Assembly: GCA_964481585.1 (NCBI GenBank) | Contig: CAYZVT010000001.1 | Span: 1 to 44,212, forward strand | Direction: 5' to 3' | DNA: 44,212 nt | Origin: an uncultured Pirellulales bacterium | GTDB taxonomy: Bacteria > Planctomycetota > Planctomycetia > Pirellulales > CAYZVT01 | Part shown: positions 25,622 to 44,212 of the stretch, in pieces | Position numbering within the stretch: position 1 is the first letter of the stretch | Layout of the letters: each line of letters begins with the position of its first letter | Translations under genes and position numbers: made by a program | The notes under the pieces: generated by a model | Told to the model about the DNA's origin: nothing | The model's database searches: none | The model's input: only the letters and a program-made list of their open reading frames with translations

Positions 25622-25701
25622 GATTTCCCTCCTTCAAGGAAAAGAGTTTTTGCGAGAACGGTTCAGCAGCCGCCTTGGCCGGTTGCCCCGCTTGTGGGCA
25701 G

Positions 25702-26745
25702 CTACAGCGCTAGCTGGAGCACTTCGCCACCTTGGCTGGTGCTCAGGCCGCGCCACAGCGCTAGGTCGGTGGAGTCACTAAAAAAACGGACCGCGCCGTC
25801 GCCCAGCGCGGCGTGGACGCCGCCGGGGTGTTGGCTGCGGGCGGCGTGATGCAGATTGGGTGGGAAGGGAGAACCCTCGCCGGGCGCTTGGGTCAAGCCG
25901 ACCACGCAGTTGATGCCCCGCAGATCGCCTTGATCGGGACAAGTTTGGTCCACCGCATCGGGAATGGGCGAATTGGGGCCGGTCCAGGTTTCAAAGCCCT
26001 GGCCGCCACGGCAAATGGTGCAATCGCCCAGCGAGCCTTGCCAGGATGCGCCTTTGGCGCTGATGACCTCCGCCAGCAGCAGCGTATTGCTGCTGCCGTC
26101 GCGCAGGTCGGCCATCGGGGTCGGCGTGTTCCAGGTAAACGCGGCGCCGCCAAAAGTTTCCGTGCCGCGCGTTGCCTGCTGGCTCGTGCTGGTGTTTCCC
26201 CAGCTCACCGCGTAGTTGTAGCGCACGCGGGACCAGGTCGCACTTTGCCACTCGTTTTCGGCCAGCCCGTCGGAAGGGCAAGCCATTAGGGCGATCTTCA
26301 CTTGGCGCGCGGGTTTGTTGTTGGCGTGACTGCAACTGAGCTTCAAGTCGAAACGGTCGTAGACGTTTTGCTGTTCGATGTAGGGCAGAATCGCGTGTGC
26401 CCAAGTGCAGTCGTCGTACCAGCGGAACCCTTGCCGGCCGGCCATGCCCGGCGCGAGCAGGCAGCCCGGCGGAAAGCTGCCGTGGCCGTCCAGATACAAA
26501 TGCATGCCCAACGCCAGTTGCTTCAGATTGTTGCTGCACTGCGCGCGCCGCGCTGCTTCGCGGGCGGCTTGCACGGCCGGCAACAGCAGCGAGATGAGGA
26601 TGCCAATGATCGCGATCACGACCAATAGCTCGACCAGCGTAAAGGCGTGTAGGGGCCGGGAGAGGCGGCCTCGCTGCGCAAGATGTCTGTGCTCCGCTTG
26701 ATCTTTGGCCCCGACACAGACAAAGGCGTGTAGCTGCTTCTTCAT
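25702..26745 (-). CDS. DUF1559 protein with prepilin-type N-terminus
   Basis: Start at ATG 26745 (GGAGGG SD sequence, avoids overlap with the upstream gene). N-terminus [46 protein letters not shown]-terminus HPGGVHAALGDGAVRF. Confidence 0.85.
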   Translation of the reverse strand: MKKQLHAFVCVGAKDQAEHRHLAQRGRLSRPLHAFTLVELLVVIAIIGILISLLLPAVQAAREAARRAQCSNNLKQLALGMHLYLDGHGSFPPGCLLAPGMAGRQGFRWYDDCTWAHAILPYIEQQNVYDRFDLKLSCSHANNKPARQVKIALMACPSDGLAENEWQSATWSRVRYNYAVSWGNTSTSQQATRGTETFGGAAFTWNTPTPMADLRDGSSNTLLLAEVISAKGASWQGSLGDCTICRGGQGFETWTGPNSPIPDAVDQTCPDQGDLRGINCVVGLTQAPGEGSPFPPNLHHAARSQHPGGVHAALGDGAVRFFSDSTDLALWRGLSTSQGGEVLQLAL

Positions 26746-26782
26746 CCTTACCCTCCGTAGGACATGCGGCGACCGCGAGGCC

Positions 26783-27190
26783 CTACAGCGCGAAATGCTG
26801 TTCTTCACGATCAGCCTGAACTTCGATTACCAGCCCGTCGGCATATTCGGGCGGAATCAGATCAATGCGTTCCGGTTGCAGTTCGTCGGTGGAAGACGAC
26901 TCGATCATCCGCCCGGTCTCTTGCATCGCGTTGAAGGTCACCAGCACTTTGCCGTGAGGGACTTCTTCGGCGCGGTAACGCCCGTTGCGAATCACGGCTG
27001 TGACTCCGCCCCCGCGATGCGGGTCTTGCGGCAGAAACATGATTTTGCCCTCCGTTAATGGCTGGCCGGCGACCGTCACCGTTCCAGCCAGCGTCGCGTG
27101 AGGGTAAGTCGGTTGCGGAGCGCCGCAGGCGACGATCCACGGCAACAGCAAGCCGGCCAGCGCGGCGGCGCTCAAGGGCGTTTTGTTCAT
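26783..27190 (-). CDS. small lipoprotein, carboxypeptidase-regulatory-like beta-sandwich
   Basis: 135 aa. Signal peptide plus lipobox IVAC. TLAGTVTVAGQPLTEGKIMFLP. Its start overlaps the upstream gene stop (ATGA at 27187-27190). Paralog of 169..615. Confidence 0.7.
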   Translation of the reverse strand: MNKTPLSAAALAGLLLPWIVACGAPQPTYPHATLAGTVTVAGQPLTEGKIMFLPQDPHRGGGVTAVIRNGRYRAEEVPHGKVLVTFNAMQETGRMIESSSTDELQPERIDLIPPEYADGLVIEVQADREEQHFAL

Positions 27191-29223: not shown

Positions 29224-29303
29224 GGATACCTCGCGCCGGCTAACAACAAGTCGGAGGAATTGGACCGTGAGCATGGCTGCACTTTTTCCCCTGCAATGCG
29301 CTC

Positions 29304-30953
29304 TCAGGGATGCGATGGCGGCGGCGCTGCGGTCGCCGGTACAGGCCCTGCTTCGAAAAGAATCTTGATCTGCTCGGCGCTCAGTGCTCGATCGTACAGA
29401 TGCACCTCGTCAACCGATCCTGCGAAGAAGGCGTCGCGTCCCCGGGCCGTGCCCCGCTGGTGGGCGAGCTTGCTGTGTCGCAAGCCCATCAGCACTTGGC
29501 TGTGGGCGGTGTCGTAGCGTTCCAGCTGCGCCCCGCGGAGGCGACCGTAGCGCTCTCCGTTGCGATAGAGCGTGATCGTGCCCGACGATTCGTAAGTGAT
29601 GGCCAACAGGGCCGTCTCGCCGGGCAGCATCGGCTCGGGGACGACAAACTGAGGCCGCTGCTGGGTCCGGCGAAAATAGTCGCTGCCGTTGATCCAGACC
29701 AGTGGCGCGATTTCGGCGAACACCAGACCGTCGAAAATCTGCGCGCGCGGCTTTTCGAGAATCACCACGCCGCCGCCTTGTTGTTCAAAATTGGCGGGCG
29801 CTACCCAGGCAACGAGCGAATACTCGCTAAGATCTTTCGCCAAGGGAGAGGCCCGCAGGTAGCCGTCCACGCCGTTGAGCAGCAGGCGTCCCTGCGCGAT
29901 TGTCGCGCTGCCGTGCAATGCGCCGTGCAGACCGCCGATGTGATCCAGGGCGCTATCGTCGTTGAACGTCCAGCGATGGATCAGCGCGCGTTCAAGCCCT
30001 TCGCGGGCGGCGGCGGCTACCATCTCGGGCAGGTCCGCTGTGCGCAAGAACCGTTCCGGCTGCGAGGAGTAGGTGGGCGACGTTTCGGGGGAAGGCGTTT
30101 TGGCAAGCCGCGTCGCCTGGCCGACCGCCAGCACGAGCGGTGGGGAGCCGTTGGTGGGCTGAACGAGCACGGACCCGGAGAAGACATGGATCTCGGCGTC
30201 TCCCCGCGCATCGACCGCCACGCCGAACTCGGTCCCCAGGTCCACCACCGTCCCCCGGGGCGTTTCAATCGCAAACTCCGCCGTCGCTTTGGCCACCAGA
30301 GCCGTAAGTTTGCCCCGTAGCAACCGCCCCCTGTGCGGCGCGGCCAACTGGAACCGCGCCGGACCGCTCAATACGACGCGGGTTCCCTCCTGAAAGGCGA
30401 TCTCGACCGTTCCCCGCTCCAGTTTCAGCACTTTCCCCTGCCGCAACGCCGCACCCGCCGCGATGTCTGGACTGCCCGCCGCCCACTGGCAGTCAATCGC
30501 CTGGGTCAATCGCGCCAGCACAGCGGGCGCCGAGTGAGGTTGCGGTAAAGGACTCGCCGGAGGCGGGACGCGGCGCACATGCACTTGCGCCGACGTCAAA
30601 AGCAGCGAGACAATCGCCACCAGCGCAAAGACCACCGAGAAGCCCGAAGTCCGCGTTAAGTAGTCGCGCACCGCCGCCCAGCCGCTGCGCGAGGGGTCGG
30701 GCAGCGGCGCGATGGTCAGCGGCACCGGCGGCGGAGCGGCCGTCTCCGGCAACGGCAAAACCGTCCGCCGCATCTCCGTCCGCCAATGGATCTCAGTGTG
30801 GAGATCAAAATACTCCAGATAAACCTGCCGCGCCGCCGGGTCGTTCGCCAGCAGCTGCTCTAGTTGCTGCACTTGCTGGCGAGTGAGCATGCCGCTGCAT
30901 AGGCCGTCGATCAGCGCCAGCAGCGTATCGCGTGATTCCTGCGGGGCGCTCAT
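29304..30953 (-). CDS. FecR-family anti-sigma factor with C-terminal LamG sensor domain
   Basis: Its ATG at 30953 overlaps the sigma gene stop (ATGA). One TM segment (FSVVFALVAIVSLLL). FecR region (AEFAIETPRGTVVDLGTEFGV). LamG-type tail FFAGSVDEVHLYDRALSAEQI. Confidence 0.8.
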   Translation of the reverse strand: MSAPQESRDTLLALIDGLCSGMLTRQQVQQLEQLLANDPAARQVYLEYFDLHTEIHWRTEMRRTVLPLPETAAPPPVPLTIAPLPDPSRSGWAAVRDYLTRTSGFSVVFALVAIVSLLLTSAQVHVRRVPPPASPLPQPHSAPAVLARLTQAIDCQWAAGSPDIAAGAALRQGKVLKLERGTVEIAFQEGTRVVLSGPARFQLAAPHRGRLLRGKLTALVAKATAEFAIETPRGTVVDLGTEFGVAVDARGDAEIHVFSGSVLVQPTNGSPPLVLAVGQATRLAKTPSPETSPTYSSQPERFLRTADLPEMVAAAAREGLERALIHRWTFNDDSALDHIGGLHGALHGSATIAQGRLLLNGVDGYLRASPLAKDLSEYSLVAWVAPANFEQQGGGVVILEKPRAQIFDGLVFAEIAPLVWINGSDYFRRTQQRPQFVVPEPMLPGETALLAITYESSGTITLYRNGERYGRLRGAQLERYDTAHSQVLMGLRHSKLAHQRGTARGRDAFFAGSVDEVHLYDRALSAEQIKILFEAGPVPATAAPPPSHP

Positions 30954-31483
30954 CGCGAGCGCTCCTGAGCGAGTGCCCGGTTGATGCAGTCGTAAAGCGA
31001 TTGGCGGATGCGTCGCAACGATTGATAGACGCCGTCGGCCGAACGCCCCCGGTGCGCGGCGACCTGCTTGATGCTGGTGTTGCGCTCGTAACACTGCTCC
31101 AGAAGCTGCCGGTCGGCAGGGCTCAATTTTTCCAAGCAGAAAGGCAGCGCCTCGCGCCGCGCCGCAAAGAGATCCACCTGAGCAGCCCGCTCCGCGCTTA
31201 GCGCGGCCAGCAGCGATTGGCTGAAGACGGTTTGCTGGCGGCGTTTACTTTGGACAAAGTTGTTCGCTTCGTAATAGGCAATCCGGCATGCCCAGGCGAA
31301 GAAATTGGTGTCGGGTTGGAACTCGTCGAACTTGCGCCACAAAATCAGGCTCGTCTGCTGCAACAAATCTTCGGCGTCGGCCGTGTTTTGCACCAGCGCA
31401 TGCAAGTAGCCCAGCAACTGGCGTTGATGCTGGGAAAACAGTTCCACAAAAGCGTCGGGCCGTTTCTCCGTTTTTCTCGCCAT
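30950..31483 (-). CDS. ECF sigma factor
   Basis: 177 aa from ATG 31483. Region 2 AEDLLQQTSLILWRKFDEFQPDTNFFAWACRIAYYE. Region 4 IKQVAAHRGRSADGVYQSLRRIR. Confidence 0.85.
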   Translation of the reverse strand: MARKTEKRPDAFVELFSQHQRQLLGYLHALVQNTADAEDLLQQTSLILWRKFDEFQPDTNFFAWACRIAYYEANNFVQSKRRQQTVFSQSLLAALSAERAAQVDLFAARREALPFCLEKLSPADRQLLEQCYERNTSIKQVAAHRGRSADGVYQSLRRIRQSLYDCINRALAQERSR

Positions 31484-31748: not shown

Positions 31749-32149
31749 ATTGGTGTAAAGCATTGGTGGCTAAGCAGTTTCGCCTGCGTCTTGTAGTGCC
31801 CCCTCATGGACGGGAACCACAAACCCTGTGACTAAGTGGAGCGGGCAATGCGGGGGTAAGACACAGCAACCCGCGCTTGGATCGCCGAGCGCGTCCGCCA
31901 GTGTCTGATTTTCCCGCCGGTCCAAGCGCCTGGCCAGCCTGCTGCGCAGCCGCGCCGGCGCGGCGTAACATGCGTACCACCATTCCGGTTACCTCAGTCT
32001 TGCCAGACCTACTGGAACAATTGAGGGGGTTGCGGTACACTAGGCGGACCCCACGGGTGGAGCGAGAACAGGCCTGGCATCCGCTACTGAATTTTCCCGA
32101 CAACGGCGCTTCTCGGCGCGCGCTGCGGGGCCTGCCAAGGAAATCTGCC

Positions 32150-33961
32150 ATGCCCGAACCCGAGGAACTGGCCTATCGGCGTTGGCTCGGCTGGAAGCAC
32201 TCAACCGCACCGAACCATTACGAACTGCTGGGCGTCCCTAGCGAGGTTGCCGACCCGGATCAAATCTCTGCGGCCGCGCAGCGGCGTCTGGCGCAACTGC
32301 GGCAAGCCCAGCCGACAGGCGACGCGGAGGCAGCGCAGCTCAAGCGGCTGCTGTACGAAGTGACGCGGGCGCGGCAGTGCCTAGTCGATCCGCAACTGCG
32401 TGCCCGCTATGACCGCAGCCTCGCCGCGCCGGCGCTGGAGCCGCTCGACTTGGCGCTCTGCCCGGACTTGCCGCTCGAACCGCTCCGCGCGCCCGTGGCG
32501 ATCGGTGGTCACTTGCCGCCCCGCCAAGTCCTGTCCCGTTCCCGCGCGCTGGGCAAGCTCTCCGCGGGCTGGTGGGCCGGTGCCGCCGGCTCGGGGTTGC
32601 TGCTGTTGACCGGCGGCTTGATTTACCTGACCCGCGACGCCGACGCGATCCCCGTCGCTCAAGCCGACGCGCCGAGCCGCGAAGAGGCGTCGGCCGACAA
32701 TGCGCCGCCTCCGCCGACGCCACCGCGTCCGTCCAATGCGCCTCAGCCGCAGCCGAATGAAGCGCCCTTGCCCACGCCGGAACCCGCGCTGCCGGCCCAG
32801 TCGCTCCCGAGCGGTCCGCCTCCCGCTCCGTTTGCCAGCCTGCCGGCCGAGACGGAGTTGCCCCGGCGCGTGCTCTCGCAGACATTGGGCGTCGAGGCTG
32901 CCGGTTCGCGGCGACTCGGCCCCGTAGCGCTGGCCGGACGCAAGTTGAGCGTCGCGCTTGACTGTTCGGCTTGCGATCTGCCCGGCAGTTATGCTTTTGT
33001 TGTCGAACCGCATCCCCAGAACGCCGAGCAATGGCTCGTGCGCCTTGCGCCGCGTCCTGCCGAGAACAATCCCGCGTCCGCAGAGGCGGCCGACTCGTCG
33101 CTCGCCGTCTTACCGGCATCGCTCGCGCCGGTGGCCTTGCTGACGGCGGCCGATGGGCAATTGGCGTTTCAGTGGAACGCGGAGAATACCGAGCCGCGGG
33201 CTGAACAGTTGCGCAACGCGGTGCTCCACCTGCGGGCCGGCGAGATGTCGCACGCGCTGCGGCTGCGCAGGGTGCGGCGCGTGCCGCCTTGGACGGTCGA
33301 CTTGGCCAGCGAGGCACACCGCATTGGCTTGGACCTGCCCCATCCGCCGCCGAGGGAGCAGTTGTTTTTGGAGATCACGGCGCTGGACGGTTTTGACCTG
33401 CAACTGGCGTACGTCGTGGCCGACCGCAAATTTGGCGTGGGCGAAGTGGCGGAGATTCCGATCCACGCCACCCCCGAGGCGAGCCTCAACCTGAGCTTGG
33501 TGCAACAGGACGAGGGTTGGGAGATCACCATCTTCAGCCATTACCAGATCGGTCGCCGCGCGACGGATTTACACGCCGAACAAGTGCGGACGACGCTGCT
33601 GGGTTTGAACAGGACGCTCCAGGAAAACGCCGCCGAGATGCGCGCCGCGCAAGCGGCGGTCGAAACGATCGGCCTCCGCTTGCGGTATCTACAGGGCCTG
33701 CCGGCTCCCACCGGGATAAGCCGCGAAATCCAGATGGCGGCACGGCTGCAAGAAGCGCGGAATCTGCAAGCGCAGCTCAAGAAGGCGCTAAGCACGATCC
33801 GCCGCTTTGAAAACTCGCTTCCCCGTACGCAGTTGGCGCTCCAGCAGATGACTTCCTTGGCGGCGGCTTGCACGGCACTGCATCAGCATGCGCGGGTCCA
33901 CTATCGCGTGGTGGCCGACACGCCCGCCGGGGAGCGGGAACTATCGATCGCCGGTCCCTAG
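32150..33961 (+). CDS. bitopic membrane protein: N-terminal J-like domain lacking HPD, TM, Pro-rich linker, beta-rich + coiled-coil C-terminal module
   Basis: ATG 32150 with AAGGA 9 nt upstream. In-frame TTG 31877 and ATG 31970 are possible but look non-protein-like. J-like sequence NHYELLGV...RRLAQLRQAQPTGD...LVDPQLRARYDRSL. TM segment at about 32567-32630. Confidence 0.65.
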   Translation: MPEPEELAYRRWLGWKHSTAPNHYELLGVPSEVADPDQISAAAQRRLAQLRQAQPTGDAEAAQLKRLLYEVTRARQCLVDPQLRARYDRSLAAPALEPLDLALCPDLPLEPLRAPVAIGGHLPPRQVLSRSRALGKLSAGWWAGAAGSGLLLLTGGLIYLTRDADAIPVAQADAPSREEASADNAPPPPTPPRPSNAPQPQPNEAPLPTPEPALPAQSLPSGPPPAPFASLPAETELPRRVLSQTLGVEAAGSRRLGPVALAGRKLSVALDCSACDLPGSYAFVVEPHPQNAEQWLVRLAPRPAENNPASAEAADSSLAVLPASLAPVALLTAADGQLAFQWNAENTEPRAEQLRNAVLHLRAGEMSHALRLRRVRRVPPWTVDLASEAHRIGLDLPHPPPREQLFLEITALDGFDLQLAYVVADRKFGVGEVAEIPIHATPEASLNLSLVQQDEGWEITIFSHYQIGRRATDLHAEQVRTTLLGLNRTLQENAAEMRAAQAAVETIGLRLRYLQGLPAPTGISREIQMAARLQEARNLQAQLKKALSTIRRFENSLPRTQLALQQMTSLAAACTALHQHARVHYRVVADTPAGERELSIAGP

Positions 33962-34022: not shown

Positions 34023-35375
34023 ATGAGCGCTTCGCGTGATTTGCGAATTCAGTTGCGGTCGCGGGTGACCTGCCCGCACTGCTGGAAAAGGTTTGCGCCG
34101 GAAGACGTGCTGTGGATCTCGACGCACCCGAGCCTGCTCGACGACCCGCTGTTGGGGAGCGACCACCAGCAGCGTTTTCTGCCGACGCGGTTTAATGTCG
34201 ATGGCAACGCAATCGACTCGCGCGGGTCCGTTTGTCAGGAGCTCGCCTGTCCGCATTGCCACCTGTCGGTGCCGCGGGCGTTATTGGAAGTCGCGCCGCT
34301 GTTTGTGTCGATCATGGGCACGCCGTCGTGCGGCAAGTCGTATTTTCTGGCCTCGATGACCTGGCAACTCCGCAAGCGGCTGCCGCAGTACTTCGCCATG
34401 ACGTTCGGCGACGCCGATCCGGTTTCGAACAAGATCGTGAACCACTACGAGGAAGAACAGTTCTTCAACCCCCGCCGCGATGAAGTCGTCAAGCTGGCGA
34501 AAACCGAAGAGCAAGGCGACCTGTACGACACGGTTCGCTATGGGGAGCAGGTGGTGACTTATCCGCGACCGTTTCTGTTCAGCGTTCATCCGGGGCGCGA
34601 CCATCCGCACCACGACAACGCCCGCAAGATCGCGCGAATCTTGTGCCTGTACGACAACGCCGGCGAATCGTTCGAGCCGGGCAAGGACACGGCGGCCAAT
34701 CCGGTGACGCGGCACTTGGCCCAATCGCAGGTGCTGATGTTCTGCTTCGATCCGACGCAAGATCCGCGCTTCCGCGACGCCTGCCGGGGCCATTCGCAAG
34801 ACCCGCAAGTGCTTGAACAGCCCGTTACCTCGCGGCAGGAAACCGTACTGCATGAAATCGCCGATCGCGTCCGCAAGCATACCAAGCTCAAGCAAGGAGA
34901 ACGCCACCAGCGGCCGCTGATCGTGATCGTCACCAAATACGACGCTTGGTGGCATCTGCTGGGCGAGCAGCACTTGGAATCCCCGTGGGTTTGGGGCCCG
35001 CAACAAAAATGGTGCGCTTTGCAAATGGCGCAGATCGACGACGTCTCGGCCCGGCTGCGGGCGGTGCTGTGGCAGCTCTGTCCCGAAATCGTCTCGGCCG
35101 CCGAGGGCTTTGCCGAACAGGTGGTCTACGTGCCGGTCAGCGCGACCGGCTGCGGCCCGCAGCGCGATCCGGCGACCGGCGCGCTGGGCGTGCGGCCGCG
35201 CGACATCAAGCCGCAATGGGTCGAAGTGCCGCTGCTGGTGGCGCTGGCCCGCTGGGGCGGCGGCATGATCGCCTACAAGCAACGCCCACGCTCGCAACCC
35301 CCTCATTCTCGTCCGGTCGCGGCCACCGCGCCGCCGTCGAGCAACGGCCATCCTCAGACGAAAGAGGCCCGATGA
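34023..35375 (+). CDS. Zn-ribbon + TRAFAC-class P-loop GTPase
   Basis: Two CPHC pairs (34071-34082 and 34248-34259). G1 GTPSCGKS (34317-34340). G3 DNAGE (34653-34667). G4 TKYD (34932-34943). G5-like VSATG. No TM segment. Confidence 0.8.
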   Translation: MSASRDLRIQLRSRVTCPHCWKRFAPEDVLWISTHPSLLDDPLLGSDHQQRFLPTRFNVDGNAIDSRGSVCQELACPHCHLSVPRALLEVAPLFVSIMGTPSCGKSYFLASMTWQLRKRLPQYFAMTFGDADPVSNKIVNHYEEEQFFNPRRDEVVKLAKTEEQGDLYDTVRYGEQVVTYPRPFLFSVHPGRDHPHHDNARKIARILCLYDNAGESFEPGKDTAANPVTRHLAQSQVLMFCFDPTQDPRFRDACRGHSQDPQVLEQPVTSRQETVLHEIADRVRKHTKLKQGERHQRPLIVIVTKYDAWWHLLGEQHLESPWVWGPQQKWCALQMAQIDDVSARLRAVLWQLCPEIVSAAEGFAEQVVYVPVSATGCGPQRDPATGALGVRPRDIKPQWVEVPLLVALARWGGGMIAYKQRPRSQPPHSRPVAATAPPSSNGHPQTKEAR

Positions 35376-37930
35376 GCCAGGAACTGATTTACACCTCCGC
35401 CCCGCGCGGCTTGAAAGTCGGCAGCCGGGGGTTTTGCACCGTCGCCAGTACACCCGGTATGGCCAAAAATCTGGCCGAACGGCTCGAAGCCCTGAGCGGC
35501 TATCGGCATGTCTTTCCGCCACAAGATCCGCAGGCCGCGCTCAACCCCGTGGCGTGGTCGTGCCTCGCGCTGCAACTGGGGCCACTGCGCTACTGGGTGC
35601 TTTCGCGCGTGGCCGACGCGGGGCTGGATTATTCGCAGCGCACCAATAAGCTCGCCCATCATTTGGTCCTGGCCCAAGGCGAACTGCCGGCCGCCGGCCC
35701 CGCCGCGACGCTTGCGCAGCCGGGCGTGATGGAGACCCGTTGGACGGGCGAGCCGCGCCTGCTCACCAGTGGTCGCCCGCTACCCAAGGGCGACGCGCCA
35801 CCGAGCGTCTGTCACGCTTGGCAGCAAACGGCCGGCGACGCCGGTTGGGCGGGCGTCCTGGCGCAAACGCTGATTGACGGCCCGCGCGAGGCGTGCTTAA
35901 TCTTCCGCCCGGGCCAAGACCTGCTGCCGCTGATCCGCGAGGCACAAGCCTTGCTGCCGGCTGCGCTGCGCTGGCAAGCGACGTTCAGTACCTACTACAC
36001 GAAACTGCCGGCGGGAGCCGAATGCGCGTGGCGGTGCGTCGTCGATGGCACGCCCGAAGCAACCGCCGCGCGGCGCGCGGCGCATGCCTTGGTGCTCGAC
36101 TTAACCCGTCCCCTCGGCGCCGCCCCACAAACCACGGCGACCACCGCCGCCCGGCAAGGCCAATTGCTCACCTTGCCCGCCCCGCGCAGCGCGACGCCCG
36201 ACGCCGCACCGGACGCCGCCACCCCCGAGTCCACCGCCGCCGGGCGGTCCAGCGGCGACTACGGCCTCGCGCCGCCCGCCCTGGTCCAACCGCCCGACCG
36301 AGGCTTCCCCCCGCCCCGCACCGGCGAACCCATCCGCTTCCACCGTCCCAAACGCCGCCGGCGCGGGATGTTGCTCGCGGCGTTAGTCGGACTCTTGGCG
36401 GGAATGGCAGGCGTGTGGGCCTGGCGTCAATATGGCACCGCCGCGCCCGTCGTAGCGACGGCCCCTAAAGCAGCGGCTGCATCGCCCGGCAAAGCGAAGC
36501 CCAAGAAAGTGGCGGAGAAGTCTGTAGAAACGGAGGCCGCTCGGCCCGTGCCGTCGGTGCCGGAGCAGAAAGATCGTGGCGCAGGTGGAGGCACTGCCAC
36601 ACCGCAAGGACGCGACATGGATGGCGACAATAATTCTTCGTCGAGGGACAGTGGTGACGCAGACCAACGCCAAAACTCAACGACCGAGACAGGCGGCGAA
36701 GGAGGATCGGAATCGACAGAGCCACGGAAAAAGAAGCATGCGGAAGCGCAAGAAGACAAGAAAGAGCCGAAGAAAGAGCCTCTCCCTAAACAAGAACCGG
36801 CAGCCAAGGATCCATTTGCCGACCTGCCGCTGGTGATTGTGATGAAAGAGACGGGAACTGGCAGCGGTTTGGGATCAGAACCAACCGACGATTCGATCAT
36901 CCTTCATGCCGATCCGAAATCTGTCGAGTTGGAGTTGATCCGGCTATTCGCAACTGCCCCGGGAGATGAACTTAAATTAAAAAATGAATCCGACGCAACA
37001 CAACGTACGTGGAACGTGATGTGGAATGCCACGTCGATTGGCAGCGTGAGCTTAACTTCCAACACGCCCAAAGAACGGCCTGCATCGGCGAAGCTCTCGT
37101 TCGAGTGGAAACTGCCCAAGGGCGAGGGCGAGGGCCTGAAGAAAAAAATTGCCGCATTCGGATTGCTCATTCGCGTGGGAAAAGAAAAGGTCGCTTGCCG
37201 GTGGATTACCGACAAGCCCTTGGCGACAAAAAATAGATTGACGCTTAGCCAGAGACACCAGGACGGCAGATTGATATTGCCAGGGTTACCTAAGGTGAAC
37301 TCACCGTTCGGATACGACCTTCAGATTCTTTCAGCTTCCTATCCCAATCCGAATCAATGGAACAAGAAGCTTTCTCGCGAGATGGTTTTGTTAGACTCGG
37401 GACCGATTGACAACACTGGCAATTACCATCGCCTCCTTTGCCGTTGCCGTCTGAGCCTTGACCACACCCAGTCAAGTATCGGATACGATCTTCGAGTCGT
37501 CGGCTTTACGCATGAACATACTCGAAGCCTGGAGTACGGCGAAAAGAGCATTGCAGACTGGCTTGAGCAGAACCGTGGGACTTCATCAGACAGGTTACAG
37601 CGCGTTACGAATGCTGAACAAAGGCGAGGCGATCTGAGCGGGGAAGTGGACGATATGACTCAACAACTTGAGAAAGCCCATGACAAAAATAAAAAGCAGA
37701 TAGAACAGCAGCTAGAAGACGCGAAAAAGAAGCTACGCAGCGCGGAGCATGAGCTAGCAAAGGTGCAATTTGACAAAGCCGTGGACGACTTTTCTCGGGC
37801 GCTTCAAAAGCAAGATGTCACGCTCTCCGTGCGCATCGTGCTTGTTGATCCTCAGAAACGCTTTCCTCCGGTTCCGGTTTTGGATTTTACTCGCGATACT
37901 CACAGCGAAACCCTTACGACGCGGAACTAA
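35372..37930 (+). CDS. GAP1-like (GTPase-associated protein 1-like) bitopic protein with charged low-complexity linker and low-GC C-terminal module
   Basis: Its ATG overlaps the GTPase stop (ATGA at 35372-35375). N-terminus MSQELIYTSAPRGLKVGSRGFCTVAS...DYSQRTNKLAHHLVL. TM segment at about 36368-36424. K/E/D/S-rich linker. The C-terminal 350 aa are encoded at 40-45% GC. Confidence 0.7.
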   Translation: MSQELIYTSAPRGLKVGSRGFCTVASTPGMAKNLAERLEALSGYRHVFPPQDPQAALNPVAWSCLALQLGPLRYWVLSRVADAGLDYSQRTNKLAHHLVLAQGELPAAGPAATLAQPGVMETRWTGEPRLLTSGRPLPKGDAPPSVCHAWQQTAGDAGWAGVLAQTLIDGPREACLIFRPGQDLLPLIREAQALLPAALRWQATFSTYYTKLPAGAECAWRCVVDGTPEATAARRAAHALVLDLTRPLGAAPQTTATTAARQGQLLTLPAPRSATPDAAPDAATPESTAAGRSSGDYGLAPPALVQPPDRGFPPPRTGEPIRFHRPKRRRRGMLLAALVGLLAGMAGVWAWRQYGTAAPVVATAPKAAAASPGKAKPKKVAEKSVETEAARPVPSVPEQKDRGAGGGTATPQGRDMDGDNNSSSRDSGDADQRQNSTTETGGEGGSESTEPRKKKHAEAQEDKKEPKKEPLPKQEPAAKDPFADLPLVIVMKETGTGSGLGSEPTDDSIILHADPKSVELELIRLFATAPGDELKLKNESDATQRTWNVMWNATSIGSVSLTSNTPKERPASAKLSFEWKLPKGEGEGLKKKIAAFGLLIRVGKEKVACRWITDKPLATKNRLTLSQRHQDGRLILPGLPKVNSPFGYDLQILSASYPNPNQWNKKLSREMVLLDSGPIDNTGNYHRLLCRCRLSLDHTQSSIGYDLRVVGFTHEHTRSLEYGEKSIADWLEQNRGTSSDRLQRVTNAEQRRGDLSGEVDDMTQQLEKAHDKNKKQIEQQLEDAKKKLRSAEHELAKVQFDKAVDDFSRALQKQDVTLSVRIVLVDPQKRFPPVPVLDFTRDTHSETLTTRN

Positions 37931-37932: not shown

Positions 37933-40851
37933 ATGCTGCGCCAGCACCAGTTTATTGATGAGATTCAGCAGGCCGTGTATGCGCCGATGTCGGCGGAGCC
38001 GGAGTTGTTGCGGGATGCGGCGGCGGAGTATAGCGAGGCGTGTAGCACGGCCAATGCGCGGCTGCGGCAGGTGGGTTACTTGTTGCGGCAGGGGCTGCGG
38101 AGCGAGGCGCTGCAGGAGGCCGAACGCGAGCCGAACTTGCTCGATCTGGTCGCGCTGCTCGATTTTCCCGAGGCACCGGTCTGGTGTGCGCTGTTGCAAC
38201 AGTGGGGCATGGCGACGCCGCCGGCGCTGGCGGTCGATGTCGCGGCCGATCTGAATCAAGCCTACGCCGATCAAGAGCCGCTCAAAGAGATGCTCAAAAA
38301 GCATCGGCTGTTGGCCCTGGCCCGTGCGCCGCTCCATGCCCGCATCCATACTTTGCGGCGCATCCGCCAGGCCGATCCGGACAACGCCGCCTGGTATGCC
38401 GATCTCCAAGCGTTGGAAGAAGCCCGGCTGAATCAACTCGCCCAGGAAGCGGAGCGGGCCTTTGCGCGGGCGGATGCCGAGCAACTGCGTGCCCTGGCGT
38501 CGGAACTGCAAGCGGGCGACTGGCTCGCGCCCCCCGCGCCGGAACTTGTGGCCCGCGTGCGGCAACTCGAACAACAGATCGCTGCGAGACAAGCGCGGCT
38601 GGCGCTGGAGCAGTTGGAGCCGGAATTGACGGCAGCCTACGCCGCCTTCGATGTGGAAGCAGGCGCTGCGCTCCGCACGCGCTGGGAAGCACTGGCCGCC
38701 CAGGCGCAGCTTGCGCCTCACGACCCGCTGGCCGAACGGGCGGAGCCGGCGCTGGAATGGTTGGCCGACCAGGATGAGCTGGCCGCTCGCCGCGCGGCGC
38801 ATCAGGCGGCGGTCTATCGGCTGGAGGAAGCGCTGGCCGACGATGCTACGCCTGGACAACTCGAAAAGCTCTACCATGCCGTGCCCGACCACGAGGAGGG
38901 CGTGCCGCTTCCGTTGCAAAATCGCCTCCGCGCGCGGGTTGCCGCCGCCGAGCTGAACCAGCGCCGCAAGCACATGCTGACCGTGGTCGGCATCGCGGGG
39001 GGATTGCTGCTCGTCGCCGGCGTGGTTTTTATGCTCCTGCGGATGCAACAGCACGGCCGGCAGGTCACCGCGAGCACGCAAAGCTTACGGCAACTGATCG
39101 ACCATGGCCGCTTGGACGAAGCCGACCAGTTTTTCGATAACCTCCGCACGAGCGCTCCCAAAGTCGCCGAAGCCGCCGAAGTCCAACAGCAGCTTGGCCG
39201 ACTGCGCGGCGCGCAATCCGACGAACAAGCACGCCGCGCGGCGTTCACCCAGGCGATCGAGCAAGCCGAAGCGGCAGGTCCAGAGCAGCCCGACGAAACG
39301 GCGCTGGAACTGGCCCGCGAAAAAGTCCGCACCGACAGCGAAAAGGCACGCCTCTCGCGATTTGAATCGGCCGTCGCCGCAGCCCGCCGCGCACAGCAGA
39401 AAGCGCGGGACGACATATTTTTGGCGAAACTCGCAGCGCTGCGCGACAAGCTCGCCCAGTTGGAAGAAAGCACCCGCGAGAATGAACAGTCGGAAGCGGA
39501 GCTTGCGCAGCTGGCCGCCGAGCTGCGCAGCCTGCGCGAGAGCAACGGGCTGGTCACGCGGTCGATCTTGGCCCAAGCCGATCCGTTGATCGTACGGACC
39601 GACGCGCTGCGCAAGCATGTGCGGACGCGGATCGCGCAGCAAAAGCAGTTGCGTGAAATCACTACTGCCGTGGGCGACGTGTCACGATTCAGCGAAGAGT
39701 TGGCGCGGTTTGCCACGCTGTATCCCGAAGCCGCCTCCGCCGCGGCGTTCCGCACGGTGGCTCAGGAAGCCGATACTTGGCAGGGCATGGTCGAATGGTC
39801 GCAACTGCTGGCCGCGCCCGAGCTGCGCCGACTCGCCGCGCTTTCGCCCAAGGCGGCCCAAGCGTTGTTGATGCGCGGCCAGGCGCTGCGGCAGCGTTAT
39901 GCCGGGATTCCGCTGGCGGAAGAGTTCGCCGACAAGGAACCGTACCTGCAGGACTTGGCGCAGCGGCAATTCGACTCCGACGATCCGCCCTCCGCTGCCG
40001 CGCCGCAAAACCAGACGAAGCAACTCCTGAACGATCCGCTCATCGCCAACATCTGGATGGTGCAAGAGGCCGACGGCACGCGCTACTATCTGACGCGCAA
40101 GCCGGACATGAGCAATGCCAGCGCGACGGGACGGGTGGCGATCGAGTACCTCGCCGGCTTCGATCTGAAAACGCAGCGCGCCGGCATTGAGACGCGCACC
40201 TTGACCTACAATGACGAAGCGCCGCAAACGCGGGCGGCCCGCCGGTGCCTGGAGCATCTCCGTGATCTGACGGCGAATAACTGGGAGGAGACGTATTTTC
40301 GGCTGTTGAAAGAAGTGCTCGACGACGAGCAAATCGACCCGATCCTCAAGCTGGTACTGGTCCAGCGCATCGCCTCGCATGGCGGGCTGGCGAGCACCAT
40401 CTTCCGCACCGCTTGGGAGCCGTGCGAACGGCATCTGAAAAGCGCCGAATTGCAACTTGGCGCGCCGTGGATGCTGCCCCGCGACGACGAGGCCGTGCAG
40501 GCCCGCAACGCCGCCGAGCATGTGCTCGCGACGCTTCCCCCCTGGAATGAAGCGGCGCGCGCGGCGGCGACGAAGCTGCGCGAGGTCCAGGCGCCGCCGC
40601 GGCATCAGTACCACTGGATCGGCTGGCTGGAGCATGATCCGCAGGCGGGCTGGCGGTGCCGCACGCCGAGCGGCGCGTTCTCCGACGGGAATTTGCTGGT
40701 GATCTATCGTCCGGCAGATGCCCAGCGGGCGGAACTCGCGCCCGTGGCCACGCGATCGGGCGGTAGCATCACCTGGCAGGCCGAAACCTCGACGGCATTT
40801 CAAGCCGGACGTCCCATTTTTTTACAAGTCACGGGCCGAGCCACGAAGTGA
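37933..40851 (+). CDS. 972-aa predominantly helical bitopic membrane protein
   Basis: ATG lies 2 nt after the previous stop. About 350-aa N-terminal helical region. One TM segment (MLTVVGIAGGLLLVAGVVFMLL, about 38974-39042). Long A/E/Q/R-rich coiled-coil stretch, then a globular C-terminal region. Confidence 0.7.
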   Translation: MLRQHQFIDEIQQAVYAPMSAEPELLRDAAAEYSEACSTANARLRQVGYLLRQGLRSEALQEAEREPNLLDLVALLDFPEAPVWCALLQQWGMATPPALAVDVAADLNQAYADQEPLKEMLKKHRLLALARAPLHARIHTLRRIRQADPDNAAWYADLQALEEARLNQLAQEAERAFARADAEQLRALASELQAGDWLAPPAPELVARVRQLEQQIAARQARLALEQLEPELTAAYAAFDVEAGAALRTRWEALAAQAQLAPHDPLAERAEPALEWLADQDELAARRAAHQAAVYRLEEALADDATPGQLEKLYHAVPDHEEGVPLPLQNRLRARVAAAELNQRRKHMLTVVGIAGGLLLVAGVVFMLLRMQQHGRQVTASTQSLRQLIDHGRLDEADQFFDNLRTSAPKVAEAAEVQQQLGRLRGAQSDEQARRAAFTQAIEQAEAAGPEQPDETALELAREKVRTDSEKARLSRFESAVAAARRAQQKARDDIFLAKLAALRDKLAQLEESTRENEQSEAELAQLAAELRSLRESNGLVTRSILAQADPLIVRTDALRKHVRTRIAQQKQLREITTAVGDVSRFSEELARFATLYPEAASAAAFRTVAQEADTWQGMVEWSQLLAAPELRRLAALSPKAAQALLMRGQALRQRYAGIPLAEEFADKEPYLQDLAQRQFDSDDPPSAAAPQNQTKQLLNDPLIANIWMVQEADGTRYYLTRKPDMSNASATGRVAIEYLAGFDLKTQRAGIETRTLTYNDEAPQTRAARRCLEHLRDLTANNWEETYFRLLKEVLDDEQIDPILKLVLVQRIASHGGLASTIFRTAWEPCERHLKSAELQLGAPWMLPRDDEAVQARNAAEHVLATLPPWNEAARAAATKLREVQAPPRHQYHWIGWLEHDPQAGWRCRTPSGAFSDGNLLVIYRPADAQRAELAPVATRSGGSITWQAETSTAFQAGRPIFLQVTGRATK

Positions 40852-40895
40852 GCACGAATCTCGCCTTCGCTTTTTGGAAACGTGAGGTGTCAATC

Positions 40896-41410
40896 ATGGA
40901 ACAAGCACTCTACATCCGCATTCGCGGCCGGGTTCAAGGTCCCTTCGAACCGGACAAGCTCAAGGCGCTCGCCAAGCGAGGGCAACTGAGCCGGATGCAT
41001 CAGGTTTCTCCCGACGGCGCGAACTGGCAGCGGGCGAGCGATTATCCCGACCTGTTCGTCACGACCGCGACCGTGCCGGCAGCCGCGATGGGCAACGGCG
41101 CAGTGGGTAACGGCGCGGCGAGCGCGCCCGCGTTTGAGGAGCAAACGACTTCGGCCGAACCGCTGGGGGCGCAAGGCTCGGCCCAATGGTACTACGCCAA
41201 GGGGGAGAGCCAATTCGGTCCCACCGACTTTGAGCACTTGCGGCAACTTGCCGCCAGCGGCCAACTCCGCCCTCAGGATGCCGTCTGGAGCGAAGGCATG
41301 AGCGGTTGGGCCACGGCCGACAGCATCGCCGGGCTAACCTTTGGCGCCGCGCCGCAAGTCGCCGGCTCTGAACACGGGGTGCATGGTTCTCAGACGAGCA
41401 TAGCCGGCCG
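40896..41410 (+). CDS. GYF-GYF domain protein, N-terminal part of a frameshifted gene
   Basis: ATG 40896 with a GTGAGGTG SD sequence. GYF_2-like motifs ALYIRIRGRVQGPFEPDKLKALAKRGQL and QWYYAKGESQFGPTDFEHLRQLAASGQLRPQDAVWSEGMSGWATADSI. After about 41410 the frame turns Arg/Gly-rich and junk-like, although it stays open to 42014. Confidence 0.55.
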
Positions 41411-41414
41411 GCCG
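41403..41414 (+). repeat. (GCCG)3 tetranucleotide tract at the GYF-gene frame junction
   Basis: Read directly: gccg gccg gccg at 41403-41414. Removing one unit fuses the two frames. Confidence 0.9.
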
Positions 41415-41454
41415 CACGTCGCGTCGCGAGAGTACGGAAGTCAGCGACAGCATC

Positions 41455-41856
41455 GTGCGGCCGCTGTTGGCTTCCAAAGGCTGGGTGACATTTCTCGGGG
41501 TCTTTGCGATTATCTTGGGCGGCATTGCGCTCTTGCCGGCCATGTTGCTCTTTTCCGCAGCGGCCCGCGAACCGGAGGTGCTGTTTCTAGGTCTCAGCCC
41601 TCTGCTGAACTGCGCGGTCTTAGTCACGACCGGAGTGCTGCTGCTGGGCTACAGCGGGGCAATCCGCGACCTGGCCTATACGCCCAGCACCGTGCGACTC
41701 GCCGCCGCGATGCGGAAACTCTCGACCTTCTGGACGTTCGCGGGGATTGTGGCGCTCGTGTTCCTGGGGCTCACGGTGGTGGTGGTTTTATTGATGGTCC
41801 TGGGACTGGTCGGCATGGCGGCTGCGCTGTCCGACGTGATGCTTCTGACTCTCTAA
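41455..41856 (+). CDS. polytopic membrane module (C-terminal part of the GYF gene, or a separate GTG-initiated ORF)
   Basis: The frame is open from 41404. It predicts 3-4 TM helices (WVTFLGVFAIILGGIALLPAMLLF, VLVTTGVLLLGY, FWTFAGIVALVFLGLTVVVVLLMVLGLVGM). Its stop lies 15 nt before the MotA-like start, matching the operon packing. Confidence 0.55.
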   Translation: MRPLLASKGWVTFLGVFAIILGGIALLPAMLLFSAAAREPEVLFLGLSPLLNCAVLVTTGVLLLGYSGAIRDLAYTPSTVRLAAAMRKLSTFWTFAGIVALVFLGLTVVVVLLMVLGLVGMAAALSDVMLLTL

Positions 41857-41871: not shown

Positions 41872-42786
41872 ATGAATCTTTCGGCTACGACCGAGGCCTC
41901 GGCGGCCGCATCGGCGTCCAACCTAACTGGGCAAGAGCCGACCTTGTCGTGGGCCCGCCGCGACTTGGAGCAGCGGCTCGGCTTTCGCGGGGCGCGCTTC
42001 ACGCGCGTGAATAATCTGTTGTCGTTTCTGCTCGCGGGAGTGGCGACCGTCGGATTCTATCTGTTGCTGCTGCCGATCGCCGAGACGCCCCTGGCGGCGA
42101 TGTTTACCGAGCGCGGCCCGACTCCTTACTTCATCGCCTTCTTCTCCTGTTGGTCGCTGGCGATCCTGCTGCTTAAATGGGGGAAGCTGAAATTGCAGCG
42201 CCAAGCGCTCGCGCATCGCGTCGTGCCCGACGATCCGACCTTTGTGCTCTCGCCTAGCACGGCCGACGATGTGATGCACCGCATTTACGCCACGGTCGAT
42301 GATCCCCGGCATTTCTTGCTTTTCAATCGGATCGTGATCGCGCTGTCGAACCTTCGCAATCTGGGCCGCGTCTCCGATGTGGATGAGATTCTCCGCTCGC
42401 AAGCCGAACACGACGAGTCGTCGGTCGAAACCAGCTACGCGCTGCTCAAAGGCTTTATCTGGGCGATTCCGGTGCTGGGGTTCATCGGCACGGTGCTGGG
42501 CTTGTCGCAGGCCATCGGCGGCTTCGGCAGCGTGCTGGGCAATTCGCAAGACCTGAGCCAAATCGCCGCTTCGCTGAAGGGCGTGACGGCCGGGCTGGCA
42601 ACCGCTTTTGAAACGACGCTGGCCGCACTGGTTGCCGCGCTGGCGATTCAAATGCTGTTCACGTTCCTCAAAAAGTCCGAGGAAGAGTTTCTGGACGAGT
42701 GCGCCGAGTATTGCCATCGCCATGTGGTCAACCGCCTGCGGCTGATGCCGTTTGAATCCCAGGATGCGCAGCATGTCGCGTCGTAA
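41872..42786 (+). CDS. MotA/TolQ/ExbB proton-channel family protein
   Basis: 304 aa. TM helices plus the family signature region FIWAIPVLGFIGTVLGLSQAIGGF....LKGVTAGLATAFETTLAALVAALAIQMLF. Confidence 0.85.
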   Translation: MNLSATTEASAAASASNLTGQEPTLSWARRDLEQRLGFRGARFTRVNNLLSFLLAGVATVGFYLLLLPIAETPLAAMFTERGPTPYFIAFFSCWSLAILLLKWGKLKLQRQALAHRVVPDDPTFVLSPSTADDVMHRIYATVDDPRHFLLFNRIVIALSNLRNLGRVSDVDEILRSQAEHDESSVETSYALLKGFIWAIPVLGFIGTVLGLSQAIGGFGSVLGNSQDLSQIAASLKGVTAGLATAFETTLAALVAALAIQMLFTFLKKSEEEFLDECAEYCHRHVVNRLRLMPFESQDAQHVAS

Positions 42787-43597
42787 TCGGGATGTCACGC
42801 CATTTTCACTGTTCGCGTTTCAGGACATCATCACCGCGGTGACGGGCATCATCGTGCTGGTGACGCTGCTGTTGGCGCTGGACCTGTTCACCCGCAAGCC
42901 GAACACGCCCGACCTCGATACCCATGCGCTGGCCGAACAGGCTCGCCGGGCGATTGCCGCCGCGCAGGCGGAGCAGGTCGAGTTGGAGGCGCAACGGGCG
43001 CAGGATCAGACGGTCGTGTTGGCAACCGCCCGTCTTTCGCCGAGCGAGGTGGAACGGCGGCGGTACGATCTCACGCAGGAAAGTGCCCAGTTGCGGCGTG
43101 AATTGTCCGAGCTGGACGCGCAAGTGGCCCGTGCGGCGGCGGCCCGCGACAAACTGGAAGCGGAGCGTTACGAACGGCGCGACGACGCCGAGCAGCTCGC
43201 CGCGCTGCGGGCGCAGTTGGCGGCGCTCGAGGCGAAGCTGGCGGAGTTGGAGCAGTCGGAGCGGATGATTTACAACTTGCCCCCCGACGCCGAGAAGCAA
43301 GCCTGGCTGGTCGAGGTGGGCGAGGAGGAAGTGCAAGTGGCCCGCGCGGGGATCGACGAGCCGCCGCAAACGTACTCTGCCCGCGAGACTGTGCTCAGCG
43401 ACTCGCCGCTGACGGAATGGATTCGCACGCGCCAGCCAGCTCGCGAGTACTTCGTGCTTTTGGTGCGCCCGCAGGGGGTCCGCGTTTTCGACGACTTGCG
43501 CGAGCATTTGCGCCGGGAGGGATTTGAATACGGCTTCGATCTCATCGGCCGGGACGTGACGGTGTTTGACCCGGAACATGGAGCCGCCGCACCATGA
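42773..43597 (+). CDS. ExbD/TolR-like single-pass protein with inserted coiled-coil stalk
   Basis: ATG 42773 (AGGA SD sequence) overlaps the MotA-like gene by 14 nt. N-terminus FSLFAFQDIITAVTGIIVLVTLLLAL is ExbD-like. About 100-aa A/E/Q/R heptad region. C-terminus YFVLLVRPQGVRVFDDLREHLRREGFEYGFDL is ExbD-periplasmic-domain-like. Confidence 0.6.
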   Translation: MSRRNRDVTPFSLFAFQDIITAVTGIIVLVTLLLALDLFTRKPNTPDLDTHALAEQARRAIAAAQAEQVELEAQRAQDQTVVLATARLSPSEVERRRYDLTQESAQLRRELSELDAQVARAAAARDKLEAERYERRDDAEQLAALRAQLAALEAKLAELEQSERMIYNLPPDAEKQAWLVEVGEEEVQVARAGIDEPPQTYSARETVLSDSPLTEWIRTRQPAREYFVLLVRPQGVRVFDDLREHLRREGFEYGFDLIGRDVTVFDPEHGAAAP

Positions 43598-44212
43598 GAC
43601 GCCGCGCGACCGACGATCAAAGCAGCTTGGAACTGCTGCTCGACACGATCACAAATACGTTTGGCGGGGTGTTGTTCATTGCAATCCTGATCGCGATCTT
43701 GCTGCAACTCAGCGGCCGCATTGAGCGCGAAGCGCCGCAGCCGGTGCCGCAGGCCGAGTTGATCGCGCTGCGGCAGCAATTGGCCGACGCGCAAGCGGCG
43801 CTTGGGGCGCTGCGCGCGGCCGTGGAAGCCCAGGAGCAGGTAGCCGCCGATTTCAGCCCGCAGGCACTCAGCGACCAGGCGCGCGAGGTAGAGGCGCTGG
43901 AGCAGCAGCGCGACGCGCTGCGGACGAAGCGGCTGGCGCTGCTGGAACAACTGAGCGGGCTGCATGTGGAGTCGGGGGCGATTGCCGCCGAGTTGGAAAG
44001 ACTCGCTGCGGAGCAGGCGACCGTTGCCGAAGCGGTACGCCAGGCCGAGGCGGCACTACGGAGCGAGGTGGAGCAGCGCTCCGTCGCCGGACGATTGCCC
44101 AAAACCCGCCCCACCTACAAGCGCGAAGTGGCATGCCTCGTGCGGCACGGGCGGCTGTACTCGTACTTCCAAAACCCGCCCCAAAGGATGGTCGAGTCGC
44201 CCGTCGCGGAGC
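43594..44212 (+). CDS. second ExbD/TolR-like coiled-coil protein (paralogous architecture), 3' partial
   Basis: Not in the ORF track because it has no stop within the window. My translation from ATG 43594 (ATGA overlap with the previous stop) is open to the window end: MRRRATDDQSSLELLLDTITNTFGGVLFIAILIAILL, followed by coiled coil. Confidence 0.6.
   Translation, partial: MRRRATDDQSSLELLLDTITNTFGGVLFIAILIAILLQLSGRIEREAPQPVPQAELIALRQQLADAQAALGALRAAVEAQEQVAADFSPQALSDQAREVEALEQQRDALRTKRLALLEQLSGLHVESGAIAAELERLAAEQATVAEAVRQAEAALRSEVEQRSVAGRLPKTRPTYKREVACLVRHGRLYSYFQNPPQRMVESPVAE

Follow-up and report, generated by a model that had tools for sequence, protein, structure and literature searches.

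To our knowledge, motors of the MotA/ExbB type fall into only a handful of known classes: flagellar, Ton, Tol, gliding/type IX secretion, Agl and Zorya. As B subunits, MotB, ExbD and TolR are known to plug their channels, and GldL-GldM and PorL-PorM combine a ring subunit with a bitopic partner that has a long part across the periplasm. Plugging is also discussed in PMC11761067, and GltJ, a protein with zinc-ribbon and GYF domains, binds MglA-GTP (PMC11135422; PMC11761067). In a separate line of work, Kaur, Burroughs, Iyer and Aravind (2020; PMC7159879) defined DO-GTPase/GAP1 systems, which are computationally predicted conflict (immune-type) systems. Among these, planctomycete GAP1-N2 systems are coupled to a paired-GYF protein with a transmembrane-rich region, and GAP1-N2 systems also include DnaJ-fused FNIII components (PMC7159879). 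Here we describe a 44,212-nt stretch of DNA (the window) from an uncultured Pirellulales bacterium (GenBank assembly GCA_964481585.1, contig CAYZVT010000001.1), at the 3′ end of which a gene for a channel protein of the MotA/ExbB/TolQ family is followed by two genes for proteins with long coiled-coil stalks. Our data link this trio to an upstream GTPase operon, and we favour, with moderate confidence, the view that it encodes a divergent ion-driven motor of the 5:2 family with a stalked two-protein axle, forming the terminal module of a planctomycete DO-GTPase/GAP1-N2 operon.

The three genes lie on the plus strand and overlap one another (Table 1). Their layout had been described in an earlier reading of the letters (the sequence-only reading) as a gene for a 304-amino-acid channel protein, a 14-nt overlap and then an ATGA overlap, and our open reading frame (ORF) scan and the sequence itself bear this out. 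The longest ORF of the second gene (gene 2) spans 42752-43597; the ATG at 42773, which overlaps the channel-gene stop by 14 nt, is the start that matches all homologs (MSRR...). The start of the third gene (gene 3) at 43594 overlaps the gene 2 stop as ATGA. Within the window, gene 3 covers a transmembrane helix with Asp17, the coiled coil and the beginning of its C-terminal domain; its full-length relatives, such as the ortholog at 10819-11727 of L002, are ~300 amino acids long. The motifs FQDIITAVTGIIVLV, LLDTITNTFGGVLFIAIL and YFVLLVRPQGVRVFDDLREHL were all found in the translated trio. In our main scan, 185,579 species genomes yielded 343 loci of the gene 2 type, the best 80 of which are all from Planctomycetota. 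A protein database holds 72 full-length gene 2 relatives, and the gene 2 C-terminal domain forms 1,398 clusters at 50% identity, the best 150 of which all share the same ~270-amino-acid architecture. Given these relatives, the trio genes are real and not chance ORFs. Neither the channel protein nor gene 2 gave a match when its exact sequence was looked up among public assemblies.

The 304-amino-acid protein belongs to the MotA/ExbB/TolQ family, the identity first proposed for it from its sequence. Pfam MotA_ExbB (PF01618) matches residues 167-275 (E = 1.9e-12; 47.5 bits against a cut-off of 22.9). The protein has four hydrophobic helices (residues 49-67, 83-101, 191-219 and 238-266), and its loop charges and hydropathy predict that both termini and a helical domain at residues 104-189 are cytoplasmic. 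We modelled it in AlphaFold2 with database homologs, obtaining a predicted local distance difference test score (pLDDT) of 89.3 and a predicted template modelling score of 0.83. When this model was searched in Foldseek, ranks 1-24 were all ExbB or TolQ (probability 1.0 for all but one), with E. coli ExbB (5sv0/9ddo) and TolQ (9avi; Acinetobacter or E. coli TolQ) as the top matches and flagellar MotA and ZorA ranked below them. Template modelling scores were at most 0.70 (target-normalised), Foldseek E-values were modest (~1e-2), and the family profile barely detects TolQ by sequence (E = 0.13); the modest E-values and this profile result place the channel on a divergent branch of the family. 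The two pore threonines, Thr207 and Thr249, align with those of ExbB and are invariant in 45 of 45 sequences. Ahead of the first transmembrane helix, residues 25-47 (41944-42012) form a strongly conserved motif, PLSWxRxDIEQRLGFxGGRFTRVN, in which W27, D31 and E33 are invariant. Predicted to be cytoplasmic and without an equivalent in ExbB or TolQ, this motif is a candidate site at which the GYF or GAP1 proteins encoded upstream might dock.

Each of the two stalk proteins has the basic N-terminus, single transmembrane helix and coiled coil that the sequence-only reading had ascribed to it, with a coil of ~110 residues where ~100 had been given. In an AlphaFold2 model of gene 2 built with 28 homologs (pLDDT 86.9), the basic N-terminus precedes a transmembrane helix at residues 14-40, followed by helices at 50-86 and 90-161; the coiled coil (50-161) thus comes in two segments, with a conserved Ser-Pro break between them. 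In the C-terminal alpha/beta domain, or head, the elements run strand-strand-strand-helix-strand-helix-strand between residues 176 and 257. The gene 2 family (~270 amino acids) has no Pfam domain. Stalk length is tightly conserved in both families: measured between anchor positions, its modes are 160 and 153 residues. When we compared the two families by hhalign, their C-terminal domains aligned with 91.7% probability (E = 7.8e-7) and their transmembrane segments with 82% (E = 1e-5), so that by profile comparison genes 2 and 3 are paralogs, as had been suggested.

We next consider the residues that would tie these proteins to a proton channel. An Asp near the cytoplasmic end of the helix, already noticed in the bare sequence, is invariant in both stalk families. 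In gene 2, all 81 locus-derived sequences have the Asp, and F14, F16, Q17, D18, I19 and I20 are all invariant in 28 sequences; in gene 3 relatives, the invariant Asp sits in DSLELLLDTICNTFGG. Counted from the N-terminal side, the Asp is found 4-9 residues inside the hydrophobic segment, with ~20 residues after it. The flank ahead of the gene 2 helix carries on average 3.3 Lys/Arg and 0.09 Asp/Glu, and the flank after the helix is net negative; these charges favour an N-in topology for the stalk proteins. By inspection, the channel and the two stalk proteins are the only operon proteins with an acidic residue in a transmembrane segment. The same Asp geometry is found in MotB (Asp32), ExbD (Asp25) and TolR (Asp23), and gene 2 AFQDIITA appears, by eye, similar to AYADFMTA of MotB.

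The further claim that the stalk proteins are ExbD-like, with an ExbD-periplasmic-like end, did not hold in our searches. Domain scans with Pfam, NCBIfam and PADLOC, which covered the seven genes from 34002 to the window end, returned only coiled-coil noise on the stalk proteins and no ExbD/TolR. Pfam searches with 30 transmembrane segments and 27 C-terminal domains at E ≤10 found no ExbD, MotB_plug, PilN or PilO. The full-length gene 2 profile gave only coiled-coil noise against PDB sequences, and PDB profile searches with its transmembrane segment and C-terminal domain separately were negative. By hhalign, probabilities against 13 diverse ExbD/TolR proteins (genes from plasmid records) stayed below 1%. 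The matches listed in a database search with E. coli ExbD were only enterobacterial sequences at least 86% identical, and the 1.19 Mb of DNA searched, the window included, holds no ExbD homolog. In Foldseek, the best match of the gene 2 model had an E-value of 3e-3, and the top 50 were weak RNase-H-like folds (ribosomal protein S11, integrase core, actin subdomains and pantothenate kinase), with no ExbD or TolR among them. The gene 2 head has no invariant acidic residues, making a nuclease role unlikely. Its element order equals that of ExbD (three strands, helix, strand, helix, strand), so the head may share the ExbD fold. With no match to ExbD, TolR or MotB, the axle role rests on the Asp, the topology and the gene linkage.

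That linkage extends well beyond the trio, to an operon context that the sequence-only reading did not include. We mapped the window proteins onto related loci with enough upstream flank and found the channel, GYF, 972-amino-acid and GAP1 genes upstream on the same strand in the great majority of them (Table 1). The DO-GTPase gene is upstream in 24 of the 35 relatives with a full 10-kb flank. In the window, a GAP1 with N2 and M domains follows the DO-GTPase gene (the GTPase match being weak), and the same order is found in relatives. Of 78 loci, 77 have gene 3 immediately 3′ of gene 2; the pair is translationally coupled almost without exception, and most of the loci tabulated show an overlap of 4 nt or 1 nt. 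Three relatives have the same gene order as the window, ending in the channel gene, gene 2 and gene 3, and the channel gene directly adjoins the stalk pair in about half of the loci. Median identities to the window range from 62% for the channel to 29% for the 972-amino-acid protein. The proteins predicted or presumed to face the periplasm (gene 2, gene 3 and the 972-amino-acid protein) evolve faster, a pattern that fits a conserved engine with a rapidly changing periphery. One metagenome-assembled genome (MAG) carries two separate stalk-pair loci (L022 and L081; contigs DAORWD010001433.1 and DAORWD010000372.1), so the system can occur more than once per genome.

Table 1. Features of the operon and of the channel-stalk trio in the window, with their occurrence and median identity in related loci.
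Feature	Position	Strand	Basis or remark	Upstream on the same strand in related loci	Median identity to window
694-aa (amino-acid) protein, first gene of the same-strand cluster	31877-33961	+	Pfam DnaJ, E 0.0033, below cut-off		
DO-GTPase2-like GTPase, 457 aa	34002-35375	+	PF19993, E 1.1e-5, 25.6 bits against a cut-off of 27		53%
GAP1 (GTPase-associated protein 1), N2 and M domains	35372-37930	+	Pfam GAP1-N2, E 1.7e-28; GAP1-M, E 1.3e-14	30/35	47%
972-aa protein, one central transmembrane segment	37933-40851	+	No Pfam, NCBIfam or PADLOC match	36/37	29%
GYF-GYF-transmembrane-rich protein gene, in two reading frames	40848-41856	+	GYF_2, E 1.1e-26, two stretches; DUF5362 on the transmembrane-rich ORF	41/44	
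Channel (A) subunit gene, ExbB/TolQ-type	41872-42786	+	304 aa; ORF scan, Pfam PF01618	50/51	62%
Thr207 codon, GTV motif	42490-42492	+	Aligns with ExbB T148 (hhalign, E. coli ExbB)		
Thr249 codon, ETT motif	42616-42618	+	Aligns with ExbB T181 (hhalign, E. coli ExbB)		
Gene 2, candidate B-type (axle) subunit	42773-43597	+	274-aa bitopic protein		33%
Gene 2 Asp18, GAC codon	42824-42826	+	Inside invariant FQDII motif		
Gene 2 C-terminal alpha/beta domain	43265-43594	+	aa ~165-274; AlphaFold2 pLDDT mostly >90		
Gene 3, gene 2 paralog by profile comparison	43594-44212	+	Open for 206 codons to the window end, incomplete		34%
Gene 3 Asp17 codon	43642-43644	+			

We combined these observations into a working model. 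By analogy with solved relatives, the channel protein would assemble into a pentameric ring, and the two bitopic paralogs would form its central axle, most likely as a heterodimer, giving a 5:1:1 assembly. The stalk proteins probably sit in the channel pore: each axle helix would place its invariant Asp near the cytoplasmic end, as MotB, ExbD and TolR do. Each axle protein would also project its ~110-residue stalk and small alpha/beta head into the periplasm, and proton flow through the ring may be coupled to the state of this stalk and head. The module probably connects the periplasm with the GTPase switch of what is predicted to be a conflict system. Events at the envelope would be passed to the GYF/GAP1/GTPase switch in the cytoplasm, in a manner similar to ZorAB, which couples envelope sensing to effectors in the cytoplasm.

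Several observations weigh against this model. The stalk proteins have no sequence, profile or fold match to ExbD, TolR or MotB. The two paralogs show no robust covariation in stalk length (trimmed r = 0.11 over 61 alignment-anchored loci, with two concordant and five discordant length changes in the same alignment-anchored comparison); total length gave r = 0.17, and a motif-anchored measure over 18 loci was driven by one outlier. The lengths therefore lend no support to a heterodimer over two homodimers. About half of the loci have a stretch of 1-3.3 kb, made up of GYF/vWA or toroid-type genes, between the channel gene and gene 2, and one stalk pair (L030) lacks a channel gene within 10 kb. 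In the window, the GYF gene carries a frameshift, so the window copy may not be functional. Finally, the immune role of GAP1-N2 systems is a computational prediction only, and PADLOC has no model for this system. In L030, the stalk pair is preceded by a 671-amino-acid zinc-ribbon protein and a 1,625-amino-acid PQQ-type beta-propeller protein (2761-11706), with no channel, GYF or GAP1 gene within 10 kb upstream.

A stronger form of the model is that the trio represents an unrecognised, Planctomycetota-specific class of 5:2 proton motor, with a heterodimeric stalked axle that has no sequence relationship to MotB, ExbD or TolR and a ring wired to a double-GTPase/GAP1 switch. We put this forward tentatively, as a possibility that we would not yet expect to hold in full. 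If true, it would be the second independent case, after Zorya, of a rotary motor acting as an envelope-to-cytoplasm transducer in an immune-type system.

The same components could also serve as an effector. The trio may be a proton leak, in which firing of the GTPase/GAP1 switch releases the stalk plug and the proton-motive force collapses, leading to dormancy or abortive infection. We consider this unlikely, although it has a parallel in pore-forming SLATT effectors, which Kaur et al (2020; PMC7159879) report as GAP1 fusions within GAP1-N2 systems, and although the pore threonines of the channel and the Asp of both stalk proteins are retained. As a rule, effectors in these systems vary, whereas the channel gene occurs in 50 of 51 loci and its product is better conserved than any other component (62%). 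The variable slot instead lies after gene 3, and a length-conserved stalk of ~110 residues with a head is not obviously needed for a leak.

What occupies this variable slot differs widely between relatives: we found a transmembrane protein with a squalene-cyclase-like alpha/alpha toroid, a transmembrane protein with a vWA domain, a RelA/SpoT-SLOG-RyR protein, a PD40 propeller and an HSP70. These genes fit the variable components described by Kaur et al (2020; PMC7159879). In L014, a 900-amino-acid RelA/SpoT + SLOG + RyR protein, with a nucleotide-signalling architecture typical of conflict systems, is encoded directly after the stalk pair (11711-14410). In L017, an HSP70 gene follows the stalk pair (4907-6745); together with the weak DnaJ match of the 694-amino-acid protein in the window, it echoes the HSP70/DnaJ theme of GAP1-N2 systems in other phyla (Kaur et al, 2020).

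Some of these genes also bear on a second alternative, a non-immune, GTPase-regulated machine that spans the envelope like Myxococcus Agl-Glt and serves surface transport, motility or envelope remodelling in Planctomycetota. The two have parallel parts: a small GTPase, a GYF protein, a TolQ-like ring, two TolR-like axles, and a vWA protein plus a propeller. GTPase and GYF-transmembrane genes stand beside the channel gene here, the GYF region weakly matches NCBIfam GltJ (E = 1.4e-6), and vWA and PD40 propeller genes occur in relatives. We nevertheless judge this less probable than a proton leak. The likeness is in domain types only, and DO-GTPase/GAP1 is unrelated to MglA/MglB as far as tested. 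Only 343 species genomes gave a locus, a distribution that may be patchy. The two copies in one MAG, the transposase neighbourhood of L002 and the RelA/SpoT-SLOG gene better fit an accessory or conflict role.

The sequence-only reading had itself proposed a self-contained Ton/Tol/Agl-like force transducer whose heterodimeric plug would carry torque deep into the periplasm and which would work independently of the upstream genes. The trio's architecture fits that description, and a heterodimeric AglR5-AglQ-AglS axle has been modelled (PMC11761067); we nonetheless find it very doubtful. The trio lies inside the GTPase operon in nearly every relative, and there is no strong terminator-like site between the genes. 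No ExbD/TolR homology is detectable, and no TonB, TolA, Pal or OmpA partner is encoded among the genes scanned in the window or in relatives. In the window, the absence of OmpA, TonB and TolA that had been reported from the bare sequence was upheld, as none of the seven scanned genes encodes an OmpA, ExbD, TonB or TolA domain, and neither MotB_plug nor an OmpA-like peptidoglycan-binding domain was found in them. No TonB/TolA-type gene appears among the scanned genes downstream of the stalk pair in relatives either. An ordinary Ton/Tol paralog, which such a gene would have pointed to, is rejected on these grounds. Of the proposed stator with a stalked plug, then, the channel and the paralogous stalks with their Asp stand; the ExbD/TolR homology is not supported, and the free-standing Ton/Tol-like unit gives way to a conserved 3′ module of a DO-GTPase/GAP1-N2 operon. 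Least probable of all is that the stalk proteins are scaffolds outside the ring or unbound to it, like PilN/PilO (also two adjacent paralogs with a transmembrane helix, coiled coil and alpha/beta head) or TolA, with the Asp serving some other purpose: they have no homology to any B subunit and L030 lacks a nearby channel gene, but the invariant Asp at the cytoplasmic helix end and the D-x-x-T-x-x-x-G pattern are a B-subunit hallmark (compare MotB YADFMTA), the likeness to PilN/PilO is in overall architecture alone with no Pfam match to either family, and there is no TonB/TolA-type His motif and no other candidate axle in the operon.

Upstream of the trio, the operon shows further features of GAP1-N2 systems. 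The 694-amino-acid protein that opens the same-strand cluster may be the DnaJ-fused repeat component of these systems, and a homolog is encoded upstream in L002 and L057. Neither it nor the 972-amino-acid protein has a Pfam match to FNIII, a domain whose fast-evolving repeats may escape models. In GAP1, the M domain is followed by a transmembrane segment (MLLAALVGLLAGMAGVWAW), a polar stretch rich in Lys/Glu and a presumably extracytoplasmic C-terminal region. Between 36400 and 37900, the G+C content dips to 0.58 and the A-over-T skew reaches 0.20; this interval corresponds to the Lys/Glu-rich stretch, C-terminal domain and coiled coil of GAP1. The GYF gene is split by a frameshift. When aligned to the window, residues 1-141 of the intact 290-amino-acid ortholog from L002 map to 40896-41336 (frame 3) and residues 152-266 to 41413-41751 (frame 1), placing the frameshift within 41336-41413, near a GCCGGCCGGCCGC run. 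In orthologs, the gene is undivided and encodes ~290 amino acids, and the frameshift may be a sequencing or assembly indel, or may mark the window copy as a decaying gene or pseudogene. A promoter and terminator scan gave nothing informative inside the operon. Elsewhere in the window, on the minus strand (16900-31100), are FecR + LamG proteins (twice), three PEP-CTERM proteins and DUF1559 proteins with an N-terminal methylation motif (twice), cassettes typical of Planctomycetota, with a glycoside hydrolase family 32 enzyme among them.

Returning to the motor reading, we compared the trio with each described system in turn. Like ExbB-ExbD and TolQ-TolR, it has a channel that falls in PF01618, superposes best on ExbB/TolQ and keeps both pore threonines, with bitopic partners that are predicted to be N-in and carry a transmembrane Asp. 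Unlike ExbB and TolQ, the channel has an extra N-terminal transmembrane helix and the conserved, predicted cytoplasmic N-terminal motif. Where ExbD and TolR are single partners, there are two different ones here, each with a long coiled coil and an unrelated-looking head in place of an ExbD domain. In contrast to Ton and Tol, no TonB, TolA or Pal gene is present, and the genes lie inside a GTPase operon. GldM forms a homodimer in which Ig-like domains come after a helical domain, and it uses a transmembrane Arg rather than Asp; the stalk proteins have no sequence or fold match to it.

Zorya offers a functional likeness, as ZorAB is a MotA/ExbB-family motor in a defence-type system and is proposed to carry a signal from envelope to cytoplasm. 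The PADLOC ZorA models touch the transmembrane core of our channel (residues 201-261, E = 4.5e-6). In Zorya, however, the long coiled coil is the cytoplasmic tail of ZorA, whereas here it belongs to the partners and is predicted to be periplasmic. Membership in Zorya was rejected: the channel has 304 residues against ~700 in ZorA, and PADLOC found no match to ZorB, ZorC or ZorD in the seven proteins.

The nearest published parallel is the AglR5-AglQ-AglS axle with GltJ and MglA. There, too, one TolQ-like ring gene is combined with two distinct TolR-like genes, modelled as a 5:1:1 assembly (PMC11761067), and a GYF-domain membrane protein and a GTPase are associated with it (PMC11761067; PMC11135422). 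AglQ and AglS differ from our stalk proteins in being short, recognisably TolR-like and free of a coiled-coil stalk. MglA (Ras-like) and its regulators are of other families than the GTPase and GAP1 described here, and the Glt outer-membrane genes have no counterpart in this operon. If the trio is a motor class widespread in planctomycetes, its heteromeric axle with a long periplasmic stalk would offer a natural case for studying the effect of both on rotation and signalling, and a new kind of axle subunit with a direct genomic link to a GTPase switch would broaden the known uses of these motors.

The operon as a whole is closest to the GAP1-N2-type DO-GTPase systems, with which it shares GAP1-N2, GAP1-M, a DO-GTPase2-like GTPase and a paired-GYF protein with a transmembrane-rich region. 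We did not find the link between the trio and the GTPase operon described in the literature searched. The main text and one supplementary file of Kaur et al (2020; PMC7159879) make no mention of MotA, ExbB, TolQ, a proton channel or stalk proteins; no later papers using the DO-GTPase/GAP1 system names were found in our literature search, and a 2025 survey of MotAB relatives does not describe the group. If our reading is right, the predicted GAP1-N2 systems would gain a testable membrane mechanism. Set against their published description, the planctomycete version differs in that the channel and stalk proteins are near-universal, adding such a component to what has been described for GAP1-N2 systems.

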